From Escherichia coli (GTDB lineage Bacteria; Pseudomonadota; Gammaproteobacteria; Enterobacterales; Enterobacteriaceae), in assembly GCF_003018255.1 (NCBI RefSeq), contig NZ_CP027440.1: 64,000 nt of DNA; one strand, 5' to 3'. A program made the translations under genes and the position numbers. The notes under the pieces were generated by a model that saw only the letters and a list, made by a program, of their open reading frames with translations, did not search any database and had not been told where the DNA came from. Positions 13,025-39,509 of this stretch are shown piece by piece. Every line of letters starts with the position of its first letter. Within the stretch, counting starts at the first letter, position 1.

Positions 13025-13906
13025 TTAACGCGGTACATTCGCGGGATCGCAATAGTCCAGAAAGCGCCGTAGCGCGTTGGAAAGGTGTTTTTGCCGATGA
13101 TGTATACGCCACAACGTACGCATCAGGCGCGGCAGAGGGACCGCAACTTCACTTAATGTGCCTGCCTGCAATTGATCTTCAATCACCCGTCGCGACAGGC
13201 AACTAATTCCCAACCCATGACGCACCGCATGTTTGATTGCCTCGGAGTTACCTAATTCCATCGCCATCTCAAACTTCGGTAAATGTGACAGCAACAGATA
13301 ATCGACAATCTCCCGCGTGCCGGAGCCGCGTTCACGCAGGATCCACGGCGCAGCGGCCAGCTGTTCTAAGGTGACCGGACCACGAGCCAATGGCGAAGTC
13401 GGCGCGGCGAAAACCACCAGCTCGTCTTCCAGCCACGGTTCAGAAATGATTTCAGTGCTGTGGCACGGTCCTTCAATAAAGCCAATATCAACGCGGAAAT
13501 CCAGCACCGCTTGCATCACGTCCTGGCTGTTCCCAACGCTAAGTTCAATCGGCAACTGCGGATAATCATGGCGATAACGGGCAATGACTGCAGGCAGAAT
13601 GTAGTTACCGATAGTACTACTGGCATAGATACGAATCGCGCCGTTGTCTTCGCGAAACAGTTGTTCGATTTCAACCGCCTGTTCAAGCAGTGCCAACGCG
13701 CGCGGATAGAGCAGCCGCCCGTGTTCATTAACAACCAGTCTTTTCCCCACGCGATCAAACAGTTGCACGCCAAGCTGCCCTTCCAGGTCGGTCAAGGCTG
13801 CGCTCACTGCTGATTGCGACAACGCCAGCATCACCGACGCCTGGGTGGTTGATCCACTTTTCAATACTTCTGCAAAAACTTCCAACTGCCGGAGGGTGAT
13901 GTGCAT
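13025..13906 (-). CDS. yeiE: LysR-type transcriptional regulator
   Basis: N-terminal LysR HTH, 293 aa, divergent from yeiH. Confidence 0.9.
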
Positions 13907-14004
13907 AGTCGCTTACCACTTATAAAGATTAATTATAAATATATAATCAATTTTATTTTTAAACCAGTTAGTCGTAACCTTATGCCCGGTTAAAGGAGAG
14001 GGTT

Positions 14005-15054
14005 ATGACGAATATCACCTTACAGAAACAACATCGTACACTGTGGCATTTTATTCCGGGGTTAGCCCTGAGTGCAGTTATCACCGGGGTCGCCCTGTGG
14101 GGTGGTTCCATTCCCGCGGTTGCGGGTGCCGGGTTTAGTGCCCTCACCCTCGCAATCTTGTTGGGGATGGTTTTAGGCAACACCATTTACCCGCACATCT
14201 GGAAAAGCTGTGACGGTGGTGTGCTGTTTGCCAAGCAATATTTATTACGTCTGGGTATCATTCTTTATGGCTTCCGTCTGACGTTCTCGCAAATTGCCGA
14301 TGTCGGTATCAGTGGGATCATCATTGACGTGTTGACGCTGTCCAGTACCTTCCTGCTGGCTTGCTTCCTGGGGCAGAAAGTGTTTGGTCTGGATAAGCAC
14401 ACCAGCTGGTTGATCGGTGCCGGTAGCAGTATCTGTGGTGCTGCCGCGGTACTGGCGACTGAGCCGGTAGTAAAAGCAGAAGCCAGTAAAGTAACCGTGG
14501 CTGTTGCAACCGTTGTTATCTTCGGGACCGTGGCGATTTTCCTCTACCCGGCGATATATCCGCTGATGTCTCAATGGTTTAGTCCGGAAACTTTCGGTAT
14601 CTACATTGGTTCTACTGTGCACGAAGTGGCGCAGGTGGTGGCGGCAGGTCATGCCATCAGCCCGGATGCAGAAAACGCAGCAGTTATTTCCAAAATGCTG
14701 CGCGTGATGATGCTGGCTCCGTTCCTCATCCTGCTGGCGGCGCGTGTTAAACAGCTGTCTGGGGCGAACAGCGGCGAGAAAAGCAAAATCACTATTCCGT
14801 GGTTTGCCATCTTGTTCATCGTCGTTGCCATCTTTAACTCGTTCCACCTGTTACCGCAGAGCGTGGTGAACATGCTGGTAACGCTGGATACCTTCCTGCT
14901 GGCAATGGCGATGGCGGCGCTGGGTCTGACCACTCACGTCAGCGCGCTGAAAAAAGCCGGGGCGAAACCTCTGCTGATGGCACTGGTACTGTTTGCCTGG
15001 CTGATTGTTGGTGGTGGTGCGATTAACTATGTGATTCAAAGCGTCATCGCATAA
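14005..15054 (+). CDS. yeiH: UPF0324 inner-membrane protein
   Basis: 349-aa polytopic membrane protein divergent from its LysR regulator gene yeiE. Confidence 0.88.
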
Positions 15055-15068
15055 ACCACTACATCTTG

Positions 15069-15120
15069 CTCCTGTTAACCCGCTATCATTACCGTTTTCC
15101 TCCAGCGGGTTTAACAGGAG
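15069..15120 (+). promoter_or_regulatory. Long inverted repeat (16/17-bp arms) whose 3' arm contains the nfo Shine-Dalgarno AGGAG
   Basis: CTCCTGTTAACCCGCT ... AGCGGGTTTAACAGGAG. Distal arm ends 8 nt before the nfo ATG. Confidence 0.45.
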
Positions 15121-15127
15121 TCCTCGC

Positions 15128-15985
15128 ATGAAATACATTGGAGCGCACGTTAGTGCTGCTGGCGGTCTGGCAAATGCCGCAATTCGCGCCGCCGAAATCG
15201 ACGCAACCGCGTTTGCCTTGTTCACCAAAAACCAACGTCAGTGGCGTGCCGCACCGCTCACGACGCAAACCATCGATGAATTCAAAGCCGCCTGTGAAAA
15301 ATATCACTACACATCGGCGCAAATTCTTCCCCACGACAGTTATCTGATTAACCTCGGACATCCGGTTGCTGAAGCTCTGGAAAAATCGCGCGATGCCTTT
15401 ATAGATGAAATGCAGCGTTGCGAACAGCTGGGGCTTTCTTTGCTCAACTTCCACCCTGGCAGCCATCTGATGCAGATTTCAGAAGAGGATTGCCTTGCGC
15501 GTATTGCCGAATCCATCAACATTGCGCTGGATAAAACTCAAGGTGTCACCGCGGTGATTGAAAACACCGCCGGTCAGGGCAGTAACTTAGGGTTTAAATT
15601 CGAACATCTCGCAGCGATTATCGACGGCGTGGAAGATAAATCCCGCGTCGGCGTCTGCATTGATACCTGCCATGCTTTCGCTGCCGGGTATGATTTGCGT
15701 ACTCCTGCCGAATGCGAGAAAACGTTCGCTGATTTTGCCCGTATTGTAGGCTTTAAGTATCTGCGCGGGATGCACCTCAACGATGCGAAAAGCACCTTTG
15801 GCAGCCGCGTTGACCGTCATCATAGCCTCGGCGAAGGCAATATCGGTCATGATGCGTTCCGCTGGATCATGCAAGACGACCGTTTCGACGGCATTCCGCT
15901 GATCCTTGAAACCATCAACCCGGATATCTGGGCAGAAGAGATCGCCTGGCTGAAAGCGCAACAAACTGAAAAAGCGGTGGCCTGA
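15128..15985 (+). CDS. nfo: Endonuclease IV (AP endonuclease)
   Basis: 285 aa, matches E. coli Nfo. Confidence 0.95.
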
Positions 15986-15988
15986 TCG

Positions 15989-17077
15989 ATGAACGACAGG
16001 GAAAAGCAGATTCTTAAAATTTTACGGCGTAACCCGCTGATTCAACAGAACGAAATTGCGGATATGCTGCAAATCAGCCGTTCGCGCGTTGCGGCGCATA
16101 TTATGGATTTAATGCGCAAAGGCCGGATTAAAGGCAAAGGTTACATTCTCACCGAGCAGGAATACTGCGTAGTGGTGGGGACAATCAATATGGATATTCG
16201 CGGGATGGCGGATATCCGTTACCCGCAAGCGGCTTCTCATCCCGGTACCATTCATTGCTCGGCAGGCGGCGTTGGACGCAATATCGCCCACAATCTGGCG
16301 CTGTTAGGCCGCGACGTCCATTTGCTTTCAGTGATTGGCGATGACTTTTATGGCGAAATGCTCCTGGAAGAAACGCGCCGCGCCGGCGTGAATGTCTCCG
16401 GCTGCGTTCGTTTACATGGCCAAAGCACATCGACGTATCTGGCAATTGCCAATCGAGACGATCAAACCGTGCTGGCGATTAACGATACCCATCTGCTGGA
16501 TCAGTTGACACCGCAACTACTGAACGGGTCGCGCGATTTACTTCGTCATGCGGGCGTGGTACTTGCTGATTGTAACCTGACAGCCGAGGCGCTGGAATGG
16601 GTCTTTACCCTCGCTGATGAAATCCCGGTGTTTGTCGATACCGTTTCAGAATTCAAAGCGGGCAAAATCAAACACTGGCTGGCGCATATTCACACCCTGA
16701 AACCCACTTTACCGGAGCTGGAAATTTTATGGGGACAGGCGATCACCAGCGATGCTGACCGTAATGCCGCAGTGAATGCGTTGCATCAGCAAGGCGTTCA
16801 GCAACTGTTTGTTTATTTGCCCGATGAGTCAGTTTATTGCAGCGAAAAGGATGGAGAGCAATTTTTGCTGACAGCGCCAGCGCATACGACAGTAGACAGT
16901 TTTGGTGCTGACGATGGTTTTATGGCGGGCCTGGTATATAGCTTTCTGGAGGGAAACAATTTCCGTGACAGCGCCCGTTTTGCGATGGCCTGCGCGGCAA
17001 TTTCACGCGCCAGCGGCAGCTTAAACAACCCTACCCTGTCTGCCGATAACGCGCTTTCATTAGTGCCGATGGTGTAA
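15989..17077 (+). CDS. yeiI: Putative PfkB-family carbohydrate/nucleoside kinase with N-terminal HTH domain
   Basis: 362 aa. N-terminal winged-helix-like segment followed by a PfkB kinase core (GGVGRNIAHNLALLG) paralogous to PsuK. Starts 3 nt after the nfo stop. Confidence 0.85.
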   Translation: MNDREKQILKILRRNPLIQQNEIADMLQISRSRVAAHIMDLMRKGRIKGKGYILTEQEYCVVVGTINMDIRGMADIRYPQAASHPGTIHCSAGGVGRNIAHNLALLGRDVHLLSVIGDDFYGEMLLEETRRAGVNVSGCVRLHGQSTSTYLAIANRDDQTVLAINDTHLLDQLTPQLLNGSRDLLRHAGVVLADCNLTAEALEWVFTLADEIPVFVDTVSEFKAGKIKHWLAHIHTLKPTLPELEILWGQAITSDADRNAAVNALHQQGVQQLFVYLPDESVYCSEKDGEQFLLTAPAHTTVDSFGADDGFMAGLVYSFLEGNNFRDSARFAMACAAISRASGSLNNPTLSADNALSLVPMV

Positions 17078-17084
17078 CAATGTT

Positions 17085-17118
17085 GCCGGATTCGACGCTT
17101 GACTACATCTTATCCGGC
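17085..17118. repeat. REP-like palindrome (GCCGGA ... ATCCGGC) immediately 3' of nupX
   Basis: Inverted GCCGGAT cores between convergent yeiI and nupX. Confidence 0.5.
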
Positions 17119-17132
17119 TCATAACTCGCGCA

Positions 17133-18383
17133 CTACGCTAAGCCAATAAAGAATCCTGCAATGGTTGCACTCATCAGGTTAGAAAGTGTCGCCGCCGCCA
17201 GCGCGCGTAAACCAAGCTGGGCGATTTCCGGTGCACGGTGTGGCGCAACCGCAGAAAACGCCCCCACCACCACCCCGATAGAACCAAAGTTAGCGAAACC
17301 GCACAACGCGAAGGAAATAATCGCCACGGTTTTAGCATCCAGAGTGCCAGCCGTTTGCAGATAGGGTGAGAAATTGAGGTAAGCGACAAATTCATTTATT
17401 GCCAGTTTCTGTCCAATCAAACTCCCGGCAAGATTCGCATCACTCCAGTCAACACCCATTACCCACGCCAGTGGGGCCAGCAGGTAACCTAAAATGGACT
17501 CCAGCGAGGCATGTTCAAAGCCAAACCAGCCGCCAACGCCGCCGATAATACCGTTAATTAACGCAATGATGGCGACAAATGCCATCACTACTGTCGCCAC
17601 ACCTGCGGCGATTTTCAGCCCGGTCATTGCCCCTGTCGCAGCGGCTTCAATAATGCTTTTTGGCGGTGTTTCGGTGAAAGAGAGGTTATTAAAGGAAACC
17701 TGCGAAGATTCTGTTGCCGGGCTTAACAGGCGGGCAAACAAGATCCCGCCGGGGATCGCCATTAACGATGCCGCCAGCAGATATTCCACAGGCACGCCCA
17801 GTGCGGCGTAACCAATCATTGTCGAACCAGCAATCGAGGCCATCCCGCTACAAATCGCTGTAAATAATTCATTGCGATTCAGACGATTGATAAAGGGTTT
17901 GACGATTGCCGGAATTTCGTTTTGCCCGAGGAAAATGGTAGTGACCGCGACGAATGACTCGATCTTGCTGATATTCAATGCTTTCTGGAAGATACCGCCG
18001 AGAATGCGAATTAAGATCCCCATCACACCGATGTAGTAGAGAATACTCACCAGTGCTGTAACGAAGATAATTGCCGGTAATACCCTGAAACCAAAGATAA
18101 ATCCTGCGCCATCAAATAAGGTATCCATTTTTGGTCCGACCAGAGAACCAAAGATAAATGCGCTACCTGCATCGCTGTACGCCATCACTTTATGCACGCC
18201 AAAAGCGACTTTTTCTGCGACCCAACGCCCTGGTGGTAACCAAAGCATAATGCCGCCAATCACGACCTGTAACACTAACGCCGCGCCAACGGTACGCAGG
18301 CTGATCTTCTTCTTGTTTACTGACAGCAAAAACGCAATTGCCAGCAATACCACCATTCCCAGAACACTTCTCATGACATCCAT
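17133..18383 (-). CDS. nupX: NupC-family nucleoside permease
   Basis: 416 aa, paralog of PsuT in this window. Confidence 0.9.
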   Translation of the reverse strand: MDVMRSVLGMVVLLAIAFLLSVNKKKISLRTVGAALVLQVVIGGIMLWLPPGRWVAEKVAFGVHKVMAYSDAGSAFIFGSLVGPKMDTLFDGAGFIFGFRVLPAIIFVTALVSILYYIGVMGILIRILGGIFQKALNISKIESFVAVTTIFLGQNEIPAIVKPFINRLNRNELFTAICSGMASIAGSTMIGYAALGVPVEYLLAASLMAIPGGILFARLLSPATESSQVSFNNLSFTETPPKSIIEAAATGAMTGLKIAAGVATVVMAFVAIIALINGIIGGVGGWFGFEHASLESILGYLLAPLAWVMGVDWSDANLAGSLIGQKLAINEFVAYLNFSPYLQTAGTLDAKTVAIISFALCGFANFGSIGVVVGAFSAVAPHRAPEIAQLGLRALAAATLSNLMSATIAGFFIGLA

Positions 18384-18408
18384 AGTTATTATCTCTTCAT
18401 GTCATTTT

Positions 18409-18436
18409 GGGCGACGGCTTTCTGCCCATCAGAAAT
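18409..18436 (-). other. Conserved 28-nt leader motif, copy 1 (GGGCGACGGCTTTCTGCCCATCAGAAAT; contains TTTCTG-N5-CAGAAA)
   Basis: Near-identical sequence recurs upstream of psuT at 21637-21664. Confidence 0.4.
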
Positions 18437-18482
18437 AGCCGGGCCTGCATCTTGCGATACTGTCCCGGCTTGTTATCAACAC

Positions 18483-19424
18483 TTAATGGGTTTTGATGTA
18501 GCCGCGCACGCACTCTTCGACTAATCCCCAGAACCAGTCGGTATCAATAGTGATGCCGACTTTGGTATTGGCGGGCTTGCCAAGAACGCCCAGCTCGTCG
18601 CAGACCGTACGCCCGTAGCAAGGGCCGCTGTTAACGTCCACTTCGACGTACATCTCCTGGGTTTTAATGCCATCAGGGTTAATCAGATAACCGATGCAGG
18701 TGGCGTCATGCACCGGGCCGCCAGCCAGGCCGTAGTTTTCGAACTGCGTTTTTAGAGTGAAATTCATGATGTCGCTGAACAGCTCTCCGGCGGGGCCGCC
18801 TACCCTTTCCATCCGAGCAATCACGTCCGGGGTGCAAACAGTCTGGTTGGTGAGATCGAGGCCCATCATCACCAACGGAACGCCGGAGGTGAACACCACG
18901 CGTGCGGCTTCCGGGTCAGCAAAGATGTTGAACTCGGCAGATGGGGTGAAGTTGCCAGTACCGTAAGCGCCGCCCATCAGCACAATTTCACGGATTTTCG
19001 GCAGGATCGCGGGTTGCATACGCATTGCCACCGCGATATTTGAAAGTGGGCCAACCGGCACCAGAGTGATATCGCCATCGCTTGCCATCAGGGTATCGAT
19101 GATATATTTCACCGCATGAGTGCTTTCTGCCTGGCGGGTCAGCGGCTCGAATACCGGGCCATCCAGTCCGGTTTCACCGTGAATATTATCGGCAACGATT
19201 TGTTGACGCATAATGGGCTGTGGCATCCCCGCATAAACCGGAACATTAATCTCCAGTTTCTGGCAAACATTCAGGCCATTAATTAATGTTTTATCAAGCG
19301 TCTGATTACCCGCCACAATGGTGATACCTAATAAATCTATTGCCGGATGTTTCGCTGCCATCATTATGGCAATAGCATCATCATGACCCGGATCACAATC
19401 CAGAATAATTTTTCTCTTTTCCAT
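18483..19424 (-). CDS. rihB: Pyrimidine-specific ribonucleoside hydrolase
   Basis: 313 aa, N-terminal DxDxxxDD nucleoside hydrolase motif ([13 protein letters not shown]). Confidence 0.93.
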
Positions 19425-19592
19425 TGTTTATTTCCTCTGTTTCCAGTTGCGTTATTTTTTCTACAGCAAAGAAAATTCGACCGGGCCGATGATTGAATCT
19501 TAACAACAGCGTAAGTATGCTAAATATGAGAAATCTCATAGCGGATAAACATCGTGAAAGAAATCCACAATAATGACCTTAAGCAGCAATTG

Positions 19593-20252
19593 ATGAGTGA
19601 ATCTGCGTTTAAGGATTGCTTTTCAACGGATGTTTCAGCCGATACGCGGCTGTTTCATTTTTTAGCGCGTGACTACATTGTGCAGGAAGGGCAACAGCCG
19701 TCATGGCTGTTTTATCTGACGCGAGGCCGTGCCAGGCTTTACGCCACGCTTGCTAATGGTCGCGTGTCGCTGATCGATTTCTTTGCCGCTCCCTGTTTTA
19801 TTGGCGAGATTGAGTTAATCGACAAAGACCATGAACCGCGTGCGGTGCAGGCTATTGAAGAGTGTTGGTGCCTTGCGCTCCCTATGAAACATTACCGCCC
19901 GCTGTTATTAAACGACACGCTATTTTTACGAAAACTCTGCGTCACCTTAAGTCATAAAAATTATCGTAATATTGTTTCTTTAACTCAGAATCAATCATTT
20001 CCGTTAGTGAATCGCCTGGCAGCTTTTATATTACTCTCGCAGGAAGGTGATCTTTATCACGAAAAGCATACGCAAGCGGCAGAGTATTTAGGTGTTTCTT
20101 ATCGACATCTTTTATATGTTCTCGCGCAATTCATTCACGACGGTTTATTAATTAAAAGCAAGAAAGGGTATCTCATTAAAAACAGAAAGCAGTTGTCAGG
20201 ACTGGCACTGGAGATGGACCCGGAAAATAAATTCTCAGGGATGATGCAGTAA
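19593..20252 (+). CDS. yeiL: CRP/FNR-family transcriptional regulator
   Basis: Start trimmed to the ATG giving 219 aa (MSESAF...). cNMP-binding-like fold plus C-terminal HTH. Confidence 0.85.
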
Positions 20253-20319: not shown

Positions 20320-21570
20320 TCAAGCTAAACCAATAAAGAACCCGGCAATGGTCGCGCTCATCAGGTTGGAAAGCGTTGCTGCTGCCAGCGCCCGTAAACC
20401 AAGCTGGGCGATTTCCGGTGCGCGTTTTGGCGAAATAGCCGAAAATGCCCCAACGACAACACCGATAGAACCAAAGTTAGCAAAACCACAAAGCGCAAAG
20501 GAGATAATCGCAATGGTTTTCACTTCCAGCGTGCCGCCCGTTTGCAGGTATGGGGAGAAACTCAGGTAAGCGACGAATTCGTTAATCGCCAGTTTCTGCC
20601 CAATCAGGCTACCCGCAAGATTGGCATCACTCCAGTCCACACCCATGATCCACGCCAGCGGTGCCAGCACATAGCCAAAAATACTTTCCAGAGAGGCATT
20701 GGCGAAACCAAACCAGCCGCCAATTCCGCCGATAATGCCGTTGATCAGCGCAATAATTGCGACAAACGCCATTACAACCGTCGCCACACCAGCGGCGATT
20801 TTCAGCCCGGTCATCGCACCGCTCGCCGCCGCTTCGATAAAGCTTTTTGGCGGCGTTTCGCTGAACGACAGATTTTCAAATGTCACCTGCGAAGGCTCGG
20901 TGGCTGGGCTAAGAATACGTGCAAACAAAATACCACCAGGGATCGCCATCAGCGATGCCGCTAACAGGTAGTCAATTGGTACGCCCATTCCGGCATAACC
21001 AATCATCATCGAACCAGCAATGGACGCCATCCCGCTACAAATTGCGGTAAACAACTCGTTGCGATTCATGCGATCGATAAACGGTTTAACGATCGCCGGG
21101 ATCTCATTTTGCCCGAGGAAAATAGTGGTAACCGCAACAAAAGATTCGATTTTGCTGATGTTGAGGGCTTTCTGGAAAATGCTGCCAAGGATGCGAATCA
21201 GCAGCCCCATCACGCCAATGTAGTACAGCAGACTGATGAGCGCAGTGACGAAGATAATCGCCGGAAGTACGCGAAAGGCGAAGATAAAACCCGCACCGTC
21301 AAAGAGGACATCCATTTTCGGCCCGACCAGCGAACCAAAAATGAAGGCGCTACCGGCATCACTGTAAGACATCACTTTATGAACGCCTAATGCCGCCTGT
21401 TCTACCGCCCATTTTCCTGGTGGAAAATAGAGCATGATTCCGCCAATGGCGATTTGTAGCAGCAACGCGGCTCCAACCGTGCGCAAACTGATGCTCTTTT
21501 TATTCACTGACAACAGAAATGCTATTGCCAGTAACACCACCATCCCCACAACACTTCTCATTATATCCAT
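20320..21570 (-). CDS. psuT: NupC-family transporter, putative pseudouridine permease
   Basis: 416 aa, full-length paralog of NupX, last gene of psuK-psuG-psuT. Confidence 0.9.
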   Translation of the reverse strand: MDIMRSVVGMVVLLAIAFLLSVNKKSISLRTVGAALLLQIAIGGIMLYFPPGKWAVEQAALGVHKVMSYSDAGSAFIFGSLVGPKMDVLFDGAGFIFAFRVLPAIIFVTALISLLYYIGVMGLLIRILGSIFQKALNISKIESFVAVTTIFLGQNEIPAIVKPFIDRMNRNELFTAICSGMASIAGSMMIGYAGMGVPIDYLLAASLMAIPGGILFARILSPATEPSQVTFENLSFSETPPKSFIEAAASGAMTGLKIAAGVATVVMAFVAIIALINGIIGGIGGWFGFANASLESIFGYVLAPLAWIMGVDWSDANLAGSLIGQKLAINEFVAYLSFSPYLQTGGTLEVKTIAIISFALCGFANFGSIGVVVGAFSAISPKRAPEIAQLGLRALAAATLSNLMSATIAGFFIGLA

Positions 21571-21636: not shown

Positions 21637-21664
21637 GGGCGACGGCTTTCTGCCCGTCAGAAAT
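21637..21664 (-). other. Conserved 28-nt leader motif, copy 2 (GGGCGACGGCTTTCTGCCCGTCAGAAAT)
   Basis: Abuts the psuG stop codon and lies upstream of psuT. One mismatch to copy 1. Confidence 0.4.
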
Positions 21665-22602
21665 TAACCCGCGAGACGCTGGTATTCTTTGGCTATTTCA
21701 CTCGCCAGGATGGCGTTGTTGAACACCAGCTGGATGTTGGATTTCAGGCTGTCACCGCCGGTCAACTCAGCAACGCGCGCCAGCAGGAATGGCGTACTTT
21801 CTTTACCAATAACACCCTGCGCTTCAGCTTCAGCTACCGCCTGATCGATCGCCGCATTGATAGTGTGTTCCGGCATAGCAAACTGTTCCGGAATCGGGTT
21901 CGCTACCACGAGGCCACCGTTCAGCCCGCTTTGCCATTTCACCGCCATTGCACGGGCAATTTCGCTGGCGCTGTCGAGACGAATGCTCACGTCAAACGGG
22001 CTGGTGCGGCAGAAAAACGCAGGCAGCGCTTTGGTCTGATAGCCAATTAGCGGTACACCGAAAGTTTCTAAATATTCGGTAGTTAAGCCTAAATCGAGAA
22101 TAGATTTCGCCCCGGCACAAACGACGGTGACATTGGTGTGCGCCAGTTCTTGCAAATCGGCAGAAATATCGAAGGTATGTTCCGCCCCGCGATGCACACC
22201 ACCAATTCCCCCGGTGGCAAATACTTTAATTCCGGCAAGCGCCGCAATAATCATCGTTGAAGCAACGGTGGTTGCACCATTTTTTCCGGCGGCAACAACA
22301 AAAGGTAAATCGCGACGACTAACTTTGGTCACGTTATGCCCTTCACGACCCAGCAATTCAATTTCTTCTTTGCTTAAACCCACTTTCATCACGCCGCCAA
22401 TAATGGCGATAGTGGCAGGTACAGCGCCCTGTTTACGAATAGTTTCTTCAACTTCAATTGCGGTCTGGGCATTTTGTGGGAACGGCATCCCGTGAGAAAT
22501 AATGGTCGATTCCAGCGCCACAACCGGTTTTTTGTTTTTTAAAGCGTCCTGCACTTCCGGGGAAATTTGTAATAATTCAGGGGAAATTTTTAATTCAGAC
22601 AT
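21664..22602 (-). CDS. psuG: Pseudouridine-5'-phosphate glycosidase
   Basis: 312 aa, matches YeiN/PsuG. Confidence 0.92.
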   Translation of the reverse strand: MSELKISPELLQISPEVQDALKNKKPVVALESTIISHGMPFPQNAQTAIEVEETIRKQGAVPATIAIIGGVMKVGLSKEEIELLGREGHNVTKVSRRDLPFVVAAGKNGATTVASTMIIAALAGIKVFATGGIGGVHRGAEHTFDISADLQELAHTNVTVVCAGAKSILDLGLTTEYLETFGVPLIGYQTKALPAFFCRTSPFDVSIRLDSASEIARAMAVKWQSGLNGGLVVANPIPEQFAMPEHTINAAIDQAVAEAEAQGVIGKESTPFLLARVAELTGGDSLKSNIQLVFNNAILASEIAKEYQRLAG

Positions 22603-23531
22603 TCTGCGTTCTCCACTAACGATATAACGTTGGCAATCGATAAATCGGGGTTATTGGTGTATTCACAGGAGAGCGCCATTGACGAACATCCCTGTGCGAA
22701 ACGAACAGATTCGGCAAACGGCATTCCGTCTACCCAACACGAAGCAAGTCCCGCCATCATGGCATCGCCCGCTCCGGTAACATTAATGACATTGGTTTTG
22801 ATCGGCGCAGACCAACCACTTTCACCGCTGATATCACTGTAATAAACGCCGTCGCCGCCCATGCTCAATACCAGTCGGTTCAGGCCATGTTGATGGAACC
22901 AGGCAGCAACTTTTGCCACATCTTCACGCCCTGACAAAGCAATCCCACTCAGGGTTTCCGCTTCAAGGCGGTTTGGCTTGAGAGTGTGGATTTGATTTAG
23001 ACGGTCGCGCACTTTGACACATTTCCACGCGGAAACAGGATCGACAAATACGGGTACGTTGGCGGCATTATCCAGAATCCATGCCAGTGCCTCTTCACTG
23101 ATATTACAGTCCGCGACAATGACCTTTGCCCTCTGAATAAATTCACCGTGCTGTGCGAGATATTCAGCTGTAATAGCGTTGCTAATATTCATGTCATTTA
23201 TAGCAACCAGCATTTCACCGGTATTATCGAGTAATGATAAATAGCTCGACGTATTTTCTCCCGGCACAATCAGGCATTTATCGACATAAACACCAGATTG
23301 ATTGGTTTGCGTTAGCAGCGATTGACCATAAAAATCACTGCCTACGGCGCTCAGTAGCCAGGCTTTATTCCCCAGCAACGCCAGGTTTTGTGCAATATTG
23401 CGCCCTACTCCACCAGGCGTAAACTTTATTTTACCTGGATTTGAATCCGCATAATTTAATGATTCATGTGAATATCCGGCGACATCAATATTCGCCGAAC
23501 CTATAATTACGACATAATCCTTTTCGCGCAT
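22590..23531 (-). CDS. psuK: Pseudouridine kinase (PfkB family)
   Basis: 313 aa, PfkB motifs GGVGRNIAQNLALLG and GAGDAMMAG. Overlaps psuG by 13 nt. Confidence 0.92.
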   Translation of the reverse strand: MREKDYVVIIGSANIDVAGYSHESLNYADSNPGKIKFTPGGVGRNIAQNLALLGNKAWLLSAVGSDFYGQSLLTQTNQSGVYVDKCLIVPGENTSSYLSLLDNTGEMLVAINDMNISNAITAEYLAQHGEFIQRAKVIVADCNISEEALAWILDNAANVPVFVDPVSAWKCVKVRDRLNQIHTLKPNRLEAETLSGIALSGREDVAKVAAWFHQHGLNRLVLSMGGDGVYYSDISGESGWSAPIKTNVINVTGAGDAMMAGLASCWVDGMPFAESVRFAQGCSSMALSCEYTNNPDLSIANVISLVENAECLN

Positions 23532-23598: not shown

Positions 23599-23634
23599 TT
23601 TAAACATGTGTTCATATTTAAACATGTGCTCATA
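23599..23634. repeat. Perfect tandem 18-bp direct repeat (TTTAAACATGTG[T/C]TCATA x2) upstream of psuK
   Basis: Two adjacent units differing at one position, 68-103 bp upstream of the psuK ATG. A partial third copy follows. Confidence 0.6.
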
Positions 23635-23771
23635 GTATGCATGTTTTACGTAAAGTAAATTACCGCCAGAGATGCAAAATGGGCAGATTTGAGCAGGCTC
23701 ACAAAACGCGATTAAATGCCTGAATTATAAAAACGGGGAATTTGTGACGGAATGCACAGAACAGGAACACT

Positions 23772-38414: not shown

Positions 38415-39509
38415 ATGGGCGCTTATCTGATTCGCCGTCTGTTGCTGGTGATCCCAACGTTATGGGCGATTATCACTATCAACTTTTTCATCGTGCAAAT
38501 TGCGCCTGGCGGTCCGGTCGACCAGGCCATCGCCGCCATTGAGTTTGGTAATACTGGTGTATTACCCGGTGCAGGCGGTGAAGGTGTTCGCGCCAGCCAT
38601 GCACAAACGGGCGTCGGTAATATCAGCGACAGTAATTACCGTGGCGGACGCGGATTGGATCCAGAAGTGATCGCCGAGATCACTCATCGCTACGGTTTCG
38701 ATAAGCCGATCCACGAACGTTACTTCAAAATGCTCTGGGACTACATCCGTTTTGATTTTGGCGACAGCCTTTTTCGCAGCGCCTCGGTGCTGACGCTGAT
38801 TAAAGACAGTCTGCCGGTCTCCATCACCCTCGGATTGTGGAGCACGCTGATTATCTATCTGGTGTCGATTCCGTTAGGCATTCGCAAAGCTGTTTATAAT
38901 GGGAGCCGTTTTGACGTCTGGAGTAGTGCATTTATCATCATCGGCTACGCCATTCCGGCCTTTTTGTTTGCCATCCTGCTGATTGTCTTCTTCGCGGGCG
39001 GCAGCTATTTCGACCTGTTCCCTCTGCGCGGCCTGGTTTCCGCTAACTTTGATTCGCTGCCGTGGTATCAGAAAATCACCGATTATCTGTGGCATATCAC
39101 GCTGCCGGTGCTGGCGACAGTGATTGGCGGCTTTGCGGCTCTGACCATGCTGACAAAAAACTCATTCCTTGATGAAGTGCGTAAGCAATACGTGGTGACG
39201 GCACGTGCGAAAGGGGTAAGTGAAAAAAATATTCTCTGGAAACATGTGTTCCGCAACGCCATGCTGCTGGTGATTGCCGGTTTTCCGGCGACGTTTATCA
39301 GCATGTTTTTTACCGGCTCGCTGCTGATTGAGGTGATGTTTTCACTCAATGGTCTTGGCTTACTGGGCTACGAAGCGACCGTCTCGCGCGATTATCCTGT
39401 AATGTTTGGTACCTTGTATATTTTCACCCTGATTGGCCTGCTGCTGAATATTGTCAGTGATATCAGCTATACGCTGGTCGATCCGCGTATAGATTTTGAG
39501 GGACGTTAA
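38415..39509 (+). CDS. yejB: ABC transporter permease
   Basis: 364 aa, starts 1 nt after the yejA stop. Confidence 0.92.

Follow-up and report, generated by a model that had tools for sequence, protein, structure and literature searches.

BirA, in which a winged-helix DNA-binding domain is joined to a biotin ligase, and NadR are bifunctional enzyme-repressors. The sensor domains of NrtR (Nudix-like), of B. subtilis PurR (phosphoribosyltransferase-like) and of the ROK repressors Mlc and NagC (sugar-kinase-like) are derived from enzymes and are non-catalytic. RbkR, a winged helix-turn-helix (HTH) domain fused to a riboflavin kinase, is likewise a bifunctional enzyme-repressor (PMC5397151). Here we analysed yeiI, a gene on a 64,000-nucleotide (nt) stretch of the Escherichia coli contig NZ_CP027440.1 (assembly GCF_003018255.1; hereafter the window), which encodes a fusion of an HTH domain to a PfkB-family domain resembling the pseudouridine kinase PsuK. 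We find that YeiI is probably the transcriptional regulator of the psuK-psuG-psuT operon (psuKGT), most likely a repressor that is released by pseudouridine. The analysis established its architecture, its gene contexts, the conservation and statistics of an operator, residue patterns, phylogeny and purifying selection, and we infer that YeiI binds DNA, that it represses and does not activate, that its effector is pseudouridine and that its kinase activity is weak or absent. More tentatively, and as a proposal that we stop short of calling probable, YeiI may be a PfkB-fold pseudokinase acting as a pseudouridine-sensing transcription factor, derived from an autoregulated HTH-kinase, of a type still found in several bacterial phyla, whose duplication left PsuK purely as the enzyme and YeiI purely as sensor and repressor.

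Existing annotation covers the gene and its domain architecture but gives no function. The window region is 99.5% identical to E. coli chromosomes on which the gene is labelled 'yeiI: sugar kinase', and yeiI was found in 5420 of 5426 complete genomes. It lies downstream of nfo, on the strand opposite psuKGT, an operon with a psuK of its own. A 2018 survey counted YeiI among hypothetical transcription factors (PMC6055005), and the 2022 paper on the structure of the E. coli pseudouridine kinase (EcPUKI, that is PsuK) stated its function as unknown (PMC9061257). A 2025 critique of machine-learning annotation disputed the label 'pseudouridine kinase' for YeiI, on the grounds that this activity belongs to PsuK and that a psuK mutant is unable to use pseudouridine (PMC12506659). 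The literature searched held no paper that characterises YeiI, assigns it a regulatory target or describes a pseudouridine regulator; a 'YeiI' named as a LysR-type regulator (PMC6698644) was set aside as an evident slip for YeiE.

YeiI is a winged-helix domain fused to a PfkB pseudouridine-kinase-like domain. Its residues 1–48 match the Pfam family HTH_24 (PF13412; E 2.7e-11, 43.3 bits against a cutoff of 21.9) and residues 58–348 match PfkB (PF00294; E 5e-68). In an AlphaFold2 model (predicted local distance difference test, pLDDT, 94.9; predicted template-modelling score, pTM, 0.90) the N terminus forms helices 3–14, 20–27 and 31–43 and a beta wing (47–49, 52–53), with a mean pLDDT of 87–97 per 10-residue block over the HTH domain, and the PfkB fold starts at residue 60. 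The best Foldseek matches in the Protein Data Bank (PDB) were structures of E. coli PsuK (7vtd/7vva; template-modelling (TM) score 0.95 on the target, root-mean-square deviation 2.0 Å), and the TM score of the model against E. coli ribokinase was 0.85–0.88. The PsuK matches comprise about 305 aligned columns, the length of the kinase chain, and correspond by sequence search to YeiI residues 55–359; no solved structure covering an HTH plus a kinase domain was among the PDB matches. The two proteins are 39% identical over 307 amino acids (aa) and have GGVGRNIA.NLALLG in common, and YeiI has GADD where PsuK has GAGD. Over its entire length (residues 1–362 of 362) YeiI matches the NCBIfam equivalog NF007416 'sugar kinase' (PRK09954; 814.3 bits, cutoff 561), a family without an assigned function, and it falls below the cutoff of the pseudouridine-kinase model NF007355 (257.9 bits against 540). 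An earlier note, made from the letters of the window by themselves, had taken the first 55 or so residues for a winged helix and the remainder for a PfkB paralogue of PsuK. Both assignments are borne out, the open reading frame (15989..17077, + strand) and the N-terminal sequence quoted there are exact, and the two checks it asked for, a hidden Markov model search and a structure prediction, each return an HTH fold at the N terminus.

Loci encoding this fusion were gathered by exact-protein look-ups (9 loci) and a genome scan (80 loci) and annotated against the proteins of the window; homologue searches returned hundreds of full-length HTH-PfkB proteins, in Gammaproteobacteria, Betaproteobacteria, Fusobacteria, Clostridia and Spirochaetes. 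Outside the Enterobacteriaceae (group B), psuG lies within 60 nt 3′ of the fusion gene, often overlapping it, for 60 of 66 non-redundant HTH-PfkB genes, a CNT transporter gene often follows psuG, and no separate PsuK was found within 8 kb of the fusion genes. These psuG-linked fusions occur in Yersiniaceae, Hafnia, Photorhabdus, Gilliamella, Pasteurella, Shewanella and Vibrionaceae, and also in Ferrimonas, Aeromonas, Aquitalea, Fusobacteria, Clostridia and Spirochaetes. Of the remaining six genes, two are on contigs that stop short of psuG, one is truncated, one is in a Xenorhabdus locus with a 241-nt gap, and two are Xenorhabdus paralogues whose loci were not fetched.

Group A comprises 21 loci, from Escherichia, Citrobacter, Enterobacter, Klebsiella, Leclercia, Phytobacter, Entomohabitans and Affinibrenneria, and a metagenomic locus, L091, has the same layout. 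Here the fusion gene, yeiI, is separate from the psuK-psuG-psuT operon, whose PsuK has no HTH. Among the 21 Enterobacteriaceae-type loci and L091 taken together, 21 have both psuG and an HTH-less psuK beside the fusion gene, with the operon directly convergent with the fusion gene in 16 of these and a nupX-rihB-yeiL block intervening in the other five. This block was seen only in E. coli (the window, MG1655 and two more strains), Phytobacter diazotrophicus and Entomohabitans; yeiI converges directly on psuT-psuG-psuK, with no block, in Citrobacter, Enterobacter, Klebsiella, Leclercia, E. albertii and Affinibrenneria. At the DNA level nupX is about 79% identical to psuT, of which it is a paralogue.

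The palindrome AAACA-NN-TGTTT was noticed in seven psu promoters, where it is mostly present twice, and was then tested on 79 promoters outside this discovery set. A site with at most one mismatch was found within 130 nt upstream in 60 of the 79 (expected 1.2–2.7; maximum 9 in 1000 resamplings), and 58 had a pair of sites 17–20 base pairs (bp) apart (expected 0.3–0.5; maximum 4 in 1000 resamplings). The pair in group B lies just upstream of the HTH-psuK gene itself, from which autoregulation is predicted. In group A, with up to two mismatches allowed, a site was found upstream of the HTH-less psuK at 19 of 20 loci and upstream of yeiI at 0 of 21. The HTH segment SRS.VA.HI (residues 30–38, in predicted helix 3) is near-invariant across both groups. 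Since YeiI is the protein that carries the cognate HTH in the Enterobacteriaceae, the simplest reading is that the operators there are read in trans by YeiI. The predicted operators of the window, O1 and O2 (23602–23631), form the only site pair in its 64 kb, and the motif scan of the window found no operator-like site near nupX, rihB, yeiL or nfo or upstream of yeiI. A single match at 39240 was taken as chance, because it is unpaired and inside a coding sequence. No Rfam family matches the psuK leader, in which a riboswitch was looked for.

The position of the operators relative to the promoter was suggested by laboratory evolution. An A-to-C single-nucleotide polymorphism (SNP) at position 2257444 of NC_000913.2, given as 'intergenic (-126/+297)' and thus at −126 from psuK, recurs in two independent experiments: in five of seven mice during E. 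coli evolution in the mouse gut, in a study that assigns it to the psuK promoter (PMC9509342), and in three populations of 1200-day stationary-phase cultures (PMC7858067). Mapped via MG1655, the SNP corresponds to position 23657 of the window, in the psuK-fruA intergenic region, where on the psuK strand it alters the third base of TTTACT to give TTGACT. We read this recurrent adaptive change as a −35 up-mutation. If the SNP position defines the −35 hexamer, its predicted −10 hexamer, TACTAT, would abut O1, and the operators would lie over the expected transcription start, an arrangement that indicates repression. A separate observation on this region is that in E. coli KSC207 (L094:16530-17738) the start of psuK is overlapped by a gene annotated as an IS4-like ISVsa5 transposase, the element being situated in or beside the promoter region.

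We compared kinase-domain residues among 107 sequences: 21 YeiI, 66 HTH-PsuK fusions and 20 HTH-less PsuK, the last two making up 86 PsuK-type proteins. The pseudouridine-specific residues of the E. coli kinase are Ser30, Asn143 and Lys170; Asn143 and Lys170 bind the pseudouridine base, and Ser30 touches its N1 atom and triggers a quaternary change (PMC9061257). Their YeiI equivalents, S83, N196 and K223, are kept in 20, 21 and 21 of the 21 YeiI proteins, respectively. The nucleoside contacts D69, G93, G94, N98, N196 and K223 are conserved in 107 of 107 sequences and S83 in 106, comprising all 86 PsuK-type proteins and 20 YeiI.

Three motifs for ATP, Mg2+ or phosphoryl transfer are changed throughout YeiI. 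Of the 86 PsuK-type proteins, 84 have the first Gly of GxxG, the small ATP-binding loop named in PMC9247573, and all 86 have the second. None of the 21 YeiI has either: the first is E, D, K or P (P278 in the window) and the second is S or A (S281). The correspondence of this YeiI segment to PsuK G225-G228 comes from our own alignment. In NxxE, a motif that binds Mg2+ and phosphate, 85 of the 86 PsuK-type proteins have the Asn, in place of which the 21 YeiI have T (18), S (2) or A (1) (T240 in the window), the Glu being largely kept; in EcPsuK this Asn, Asn187, is among the residues around a putative Mg2+ density (PMC9247573). The anion-hole glycine, the second Gly of GAGD, is retained by 85 of the 86 PsuK-type proteins, and all 21 YeiI have D there (D308). 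The catalytic Asp309, equivalent to D256 of PUKI in its GxGD motif, is kept in 20 of 21. It has been lost (GIDN) from P0104, the protein of locus L091 and a basal, long-branch member of the YeiI clade, which is intact and encoded beside psuT-psuG-psuK. Among 124 family representatives, other lineages are also without this Asp (GAAS, GTSG, GASS) and have kept all or most of the pocket, and the repeated loss suggests that conversion to non-catalytic forms is a habit of the family.

Two kinds of locus in this comparison are of interest in their own right. Phytobacter sp. V91 (L008:7949-9052) has the only YeiI locus without psuKGT between yeiI and fruA, and its YeiI is the only one with a change at a pseudouridine-contacting residue, S83A, in addition to E243T and T167N; in this single case, judged from the locus only, the changes are consistent with relaxed constraint after loss of the target operon. 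Two metagenomic HTH-PfkB proteins without the catalytic Asp (GTSG, GAAS), at L092:3325-4452 and L093:180-1292, keep all or most of the nucleoside pocket; one gene lies downstream of ABC-transporter permease genes and the other in a cluster with an inosine-uridine nucleoside hydrolase. It may be that these proteins act as sensors in other nucleoside pathways.

A neighbour-joining tree of the kinase domain (200 bootstrap replicates) recovered a YeiI clade in 200 of 200 replicates and a PsuK clade in 186, both placed within a clade of HTH-PsuK proteins from Enterobacterales, Pasteurellales and Orbales (194 of 200). The branching of species is largely similar in the YeiI and PsuK clades, which fits a single duplication followed by co-inheritance. 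Within-clade distances, 0.56 for YeiI and 0.38 for PsuK, put the evolutionary rate of YeiI at about 1.5 times that of PsuK. In seven comparisons with other genera or species, the HTH was the most constrained part of yeiI, with a nonsynonymous divergence (dN) of 0.016–0.073 against 0.10–0.27 elsewhere; the ratio of nonsynonymous to synonymous divergence (omega) of the HTH was 0.007–0.07 overall and 0.007–0.03 against E. albertii, Citrobacter and Leclercia. Omega of the kinase-like domain was 0.05–0.10, so that this domain is under purifying selection and is not decaying.

Within E. coli, yeiI is dimorphic (window 16089-16988). The window allele class, at 95–100% DNA identity to the window, was found in 3360 genomes and a second class, about 81–82% identical to it, in 2060, with just 2 genomes intermediate. 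Divergence between the classes (72–82% identity in 300-nt windows) is restricted to the kinase-like domain; nfo, the HTH-coding start of yeiI and nupX are 94–100% identical across them. The second class is 91% identical to E. albertii yeiI, and both classes retain GADD and TxxE.

We propose the following history and mechanism. The ancestor would have been a bifunctional protein, a winged helix joined to a pseudouridine kinase, of the kind that the first gene of the psu operon encodes to this day in many bacteria. Its gene would have been duplicated in the ancestor of the Enterobacteriaceae, where one copy shed the HTH and stayed an enzyme, PsuK, and the other, YeiI, retained the HTH and the pseudouridine pocket as its ATP-binding and phosphoryl-transfer motifs were altered. 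The alteration of these motifs suggests that YeiI probably senses the nucleoside without consuming it. YeiI, presumably dimeric through the PfkB beta-clasp, would bind the two 12-bp palindromes 18 bp apart. Binding of pseudouridine, acting via Ser83 (the equivalent of the PsuK Ser30 that triggers the quaternary change), would then reorient the HTH domains and free the DNA.

Several points weigh against this proposal. The literature searched yields no biochemistry or genetics of YeiI. Asp309 and Lys238 (K185 of PUKI) are retained in almost all YeiI proteins, so that residual or altered kinase activity is possible, and an Asp at the GAGD glycine could be tolerated, since it is backbone amides that the anion hole uses. 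The palindrome, at 12 bp and with 7 bp between its half-site centres, makes a short site for a winged-helix dimer. The putative −35 and −10 assignment derives from one SNP together with consensus matching. Finally, psuK promoter mutations sweep in both evolution experiments, and no yeiI mutations are among the supplement rows listed there; loss-of-function mutations in other repressors (dgoR, srlR, frlR, glpR) are common in those rows. A simple repressor might be expected to be hit, and the absence of such hits could be explained if promoter strength, not repression, were limiting.

The state of the kinase-like domain bears on whether YeiI is still bifunctional, like its Yersinia and Shewanella relatives, and serves as a second, active pseudouridine kinase as well as a regulator of psuKGT. 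The catalytic Asp309 is present in 20 of 21 YeiI proteins, with K238, D217 and E243 largely kept, but one member of the clade has no catalytic Asp, and the GxxG glycines, the NxxE Asn and the GAGD Gly are changed in 21 of 21 YeiI against 0–2 of 86 PsuK-type proteins. A fold nearly identical to that of PsuK, conservation of the entire pseudouridine pocket and purifying selection on the domain would all suit an isozyme; the score of YeiI, however, lies under the NCBIfam pseudouridine kinase cutoff, and a psuK mutant cannot use pseudouridine (PMC12506659). We consider bifunctionality unlikely. Nor do we give much weight to the reading in which YeiI is an ordinary sugar kinase with a vestigial HTH, and the palindromes are bound by another factor or act as RNA. 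Its present annotation is indeed 'sugar kinase', but the sugar-kinase catalytic motifs are just the parts that have changed, and the HTH is the most strongly conserved portion of the protein. Two adjacent palindromes could in principle form an RNA hairpin in the psuK leader, yet the leader has no Rfam match, and in several bacterial phyla the palindrome pair is found together with the HTH-PsuK family. Such a reading strikes us as very improbable.

YeiI could also be a kinase or sensor for some other nucleoside, for example another modified pyrimidine nucleoside, and serve or control nupX-rihB, two genes that adjoin yeiI in E. coli. The block to which they belong is, however, a lineage-specific insertion without an operator-like site near nupX, rihB or yeiL, and the conserved neighbour of yeiI is psuTGK. 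One residue lining the base pocket differs, PUKI Met114 being Thr in 19 of 21 YeiI, and Thr292 has given way to Ile, Leu, Val or Met in all 21, a second change specific to the clade; the residues that read the pseudouridine base, S83, N196 and K223, are nevertheless conserved. The dimorphism of the kinase-like domain within E. coli would be compatible with a different ligand, whereas the sole YeiI without an adjacent psuKGT, that of V91 (L008), is the sole one with S83A and E243T. On this evidence another nucleoside seems a rather remote prospect, and regulation of psuKGT by YeiI remains the reading that we prefer.

The features of the locus in the window are collected below.

Table 1. Features of the yeiI-psuKGT region, in window coordinates
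Feature	Position	Strand	Basis or remark
yeiI coding sequence (362 aa + stop)	15989..17077	+	ATG-started open reading frame; annotated yeiI in E. coli genomes; NCBIfam NF007416
Winged helix-turn-helix domain of YeiI, residues 1–55	15989..16153	+	Pfam HTH_24, AlphaFold2 model
PsuK-like PfkB domain of YeiI, residues 58–348, proposed pseudouridine sensor	16160..17032	+	Pfam PfkB, identity to PsuK, fold match
Predicted psuK −35 hexamer TTTACT	23654..23659	-	inferred from SNP position
Predicted psuK −10 hexamer TACTAT, 16-nt spacer	23632..23637	-	read from the sequence, inferred from the −35 SNP
Predicted operator O1 GAGCACATGTTT	23620..23631	-	begins directly after the −10, covers the expected transcription start
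Predicted operator O2 GAACACATGTTT	23602..23613	-	18 bp downstream of O1
psuK (pseudouridine kinase without HTH), first gene of the proposed target operon	22590..23531	-	
psuG (pseudouridine-5′-phosphate glycosidase)	21664..22602	-	Pfam Indigoidine_A E 2e-132 and annotation
psuT (CNT-family nucleoside transporter), last gene of the operon	20320..21570	-	profile matches and annotation
nupX-rihB-yeiL block, lineage-specific insertion between yeiI and psuT	17133..20252	.	outside the conserved unit; absent from the loci of relatives
nfo (endonuclease IV)	15128..15985	+	directly upstream of yeiI

The earlier note had looked to the immediate neighbours of yeiI for clues to its function. The adjacency of nfo and the neighbouring nupX are lineage-specific and uninformative in this respect. 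The nucleoside permease gene nupX lies in the inserted block, and the predicted operator is at the psuK promoter instead; nupX and rihB were rejected as targets because the block is inserted in few lineages and its intergenic regions hold no motif. The 3-nt spacing that the note gave for nfo and yeiI is correct: the nfo stop codon TGA ends at 15985 and is followed by 'tcg' and then the ATG of yeiI at 15989. In 18 of 19 nfo-linked loci the two genes overlap or lie no more than 3 nt apart, the exception being Entomohabitans, and co-transcription of the two genes is plausible. The link to a DNA-repair gene did not survive the comparison, since nfo is missing beside yeiI in Affinibrenneria (L007) and in L091, the junction is lineage-specific and no operator was found near nfo or upstream of yeiI; no link between YeiI and DNA repair is indicated. 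The note's idea of a ligand-sensing or bifunctional fusion pointed in the right direction, with the reservation that 'kinase' may be a misnomer for a protein in which three motifs are changed in 21 of 21 sequences.

As to transcription of yeiI itself, the Ishihama list from systematic evolution of ligands by exponential enrichment (SELEX) places an RpoD site between nfo and yeiI, without hexamers, and a consensus scan of 13800–19700 for promoters and terminators gave promoter-like counts equal to the shuffled expectation. A GC-rich inverted repeat (tgccggat...atccggc) at window 17085-17125, between the convergent yeiI and nupX, looks like a repetitive extragenic palindromic (REP)-type element or a bidirectional terminator. 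Matches above the Rfam gathering threshold in the window were an L25 ribosomal-protein leader and a tRNA (46708-46733, 50449-50522), which are ordinary and unrelated to the finding.

The assignment matters for several reasons. yeiI (b2160) is among the remaining E. coli K-12 genes without a function, and has been given the wrong label of a second pseudouridine kinase by machine-learning tools (PMC12506659). Regulation of psuKGT is a specific and cheaply testable alternative, for which exact coordinates of the predicted operators and promoter are given here. It would explain which protein recognises the conserved operators where PsuK has lost its HTH, and would set the psuK promoter SNP, whose sweeps recur in experiments on gut colonisation and starvation, in a regulatory framework. 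It would also be a clean natural case in which duplication separated the two roles of a bifunctional enzyme-repressor, leaving an enzyme and a sensor whose catalytic motifs are altered. If YeiI is indeed a pseudokinase sensor, E. coli would possess a sensor dedicated to one modified nucleoside of RNA, and a large family of nucleoside-kinase regulators, so far uncharacterised, would be defined together with its operator, AAACA-NN-TGTTT. A pseudouridine-responsive repressor and its operator could serve as a biosensor for strains engineered to produce the pseudouridine used in manufacturing mRNA. In the literature searched, the assignment of a regulatory role, the operator, the signature of altered motifs and the history of duplication all appear new; curated regulon databases may hold a prediction.

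Of the described proteins, PsuK itself (PUKI, YeiC, EC 2.7.1.83; structures 7vkp, 7vtd, 7vva) shares with YeiI the PfkB fold (TM 0.95), 39% identity and the same neighbourhood. Its pseudouridine contacts D16, S30, N143 and K170 are identical to D69, S83, N196 and K223 of YeiI. YeiI differs in its extra winged HTH of about 55 residues, in the changed GxxG, NxxE and GAGD motifs and in its place outside the psuKG operon, and according to PMC12506659 it is no substitute for PsuK in vivo. The HTH-PsuK fusions of Yersinia, Serratia, Photorhabdus, Pasteurella, Shewanella, Vibrio and Clostridia, among other bacteria, have the same architecture as YeiI, are 42–54% identical to it, and share a near-identical SRS.VA.HI and the same operator motif upstream of psu genes. 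These proteins are uncharacterised and usually annotated 'PfkB family carbohydrate kinase'. Unlike YeiI, in the genome loci analysed they keep the canonical GxxG, NxxE and GAGD almost without exception, and they are the only PsuK at their locus, with the operators before their own gene.

RbkR, BirA and NadR each join a DNA-binding domain to an enzyme from the pathway under regulation, and their DNA binding is controlled by a metabolite of that pathway when it occupies the active site. YeiI similarly combines an HTH with the fold of a pathway enzyme, and a conserved predicted operator lies before genes of the same pathway. Those proteins are, however, active enzymes and do not have the PfkB fold, whereas YeiI appears, from its motifs, to have lost or strongly altered catalysis. 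In this respect YeiI is closer to NrtR, PurR, Mlc and NagC, in which the ligand pocket of an enzyme is kept, the catalytic motifs are degenerate, and the domain is the effector-binding module of a repressor. YeiI is distinguished from these regulators by its fold and ligand, by a loss of activity that is deduced from motifs, and by a catalytic Asp that is still there.

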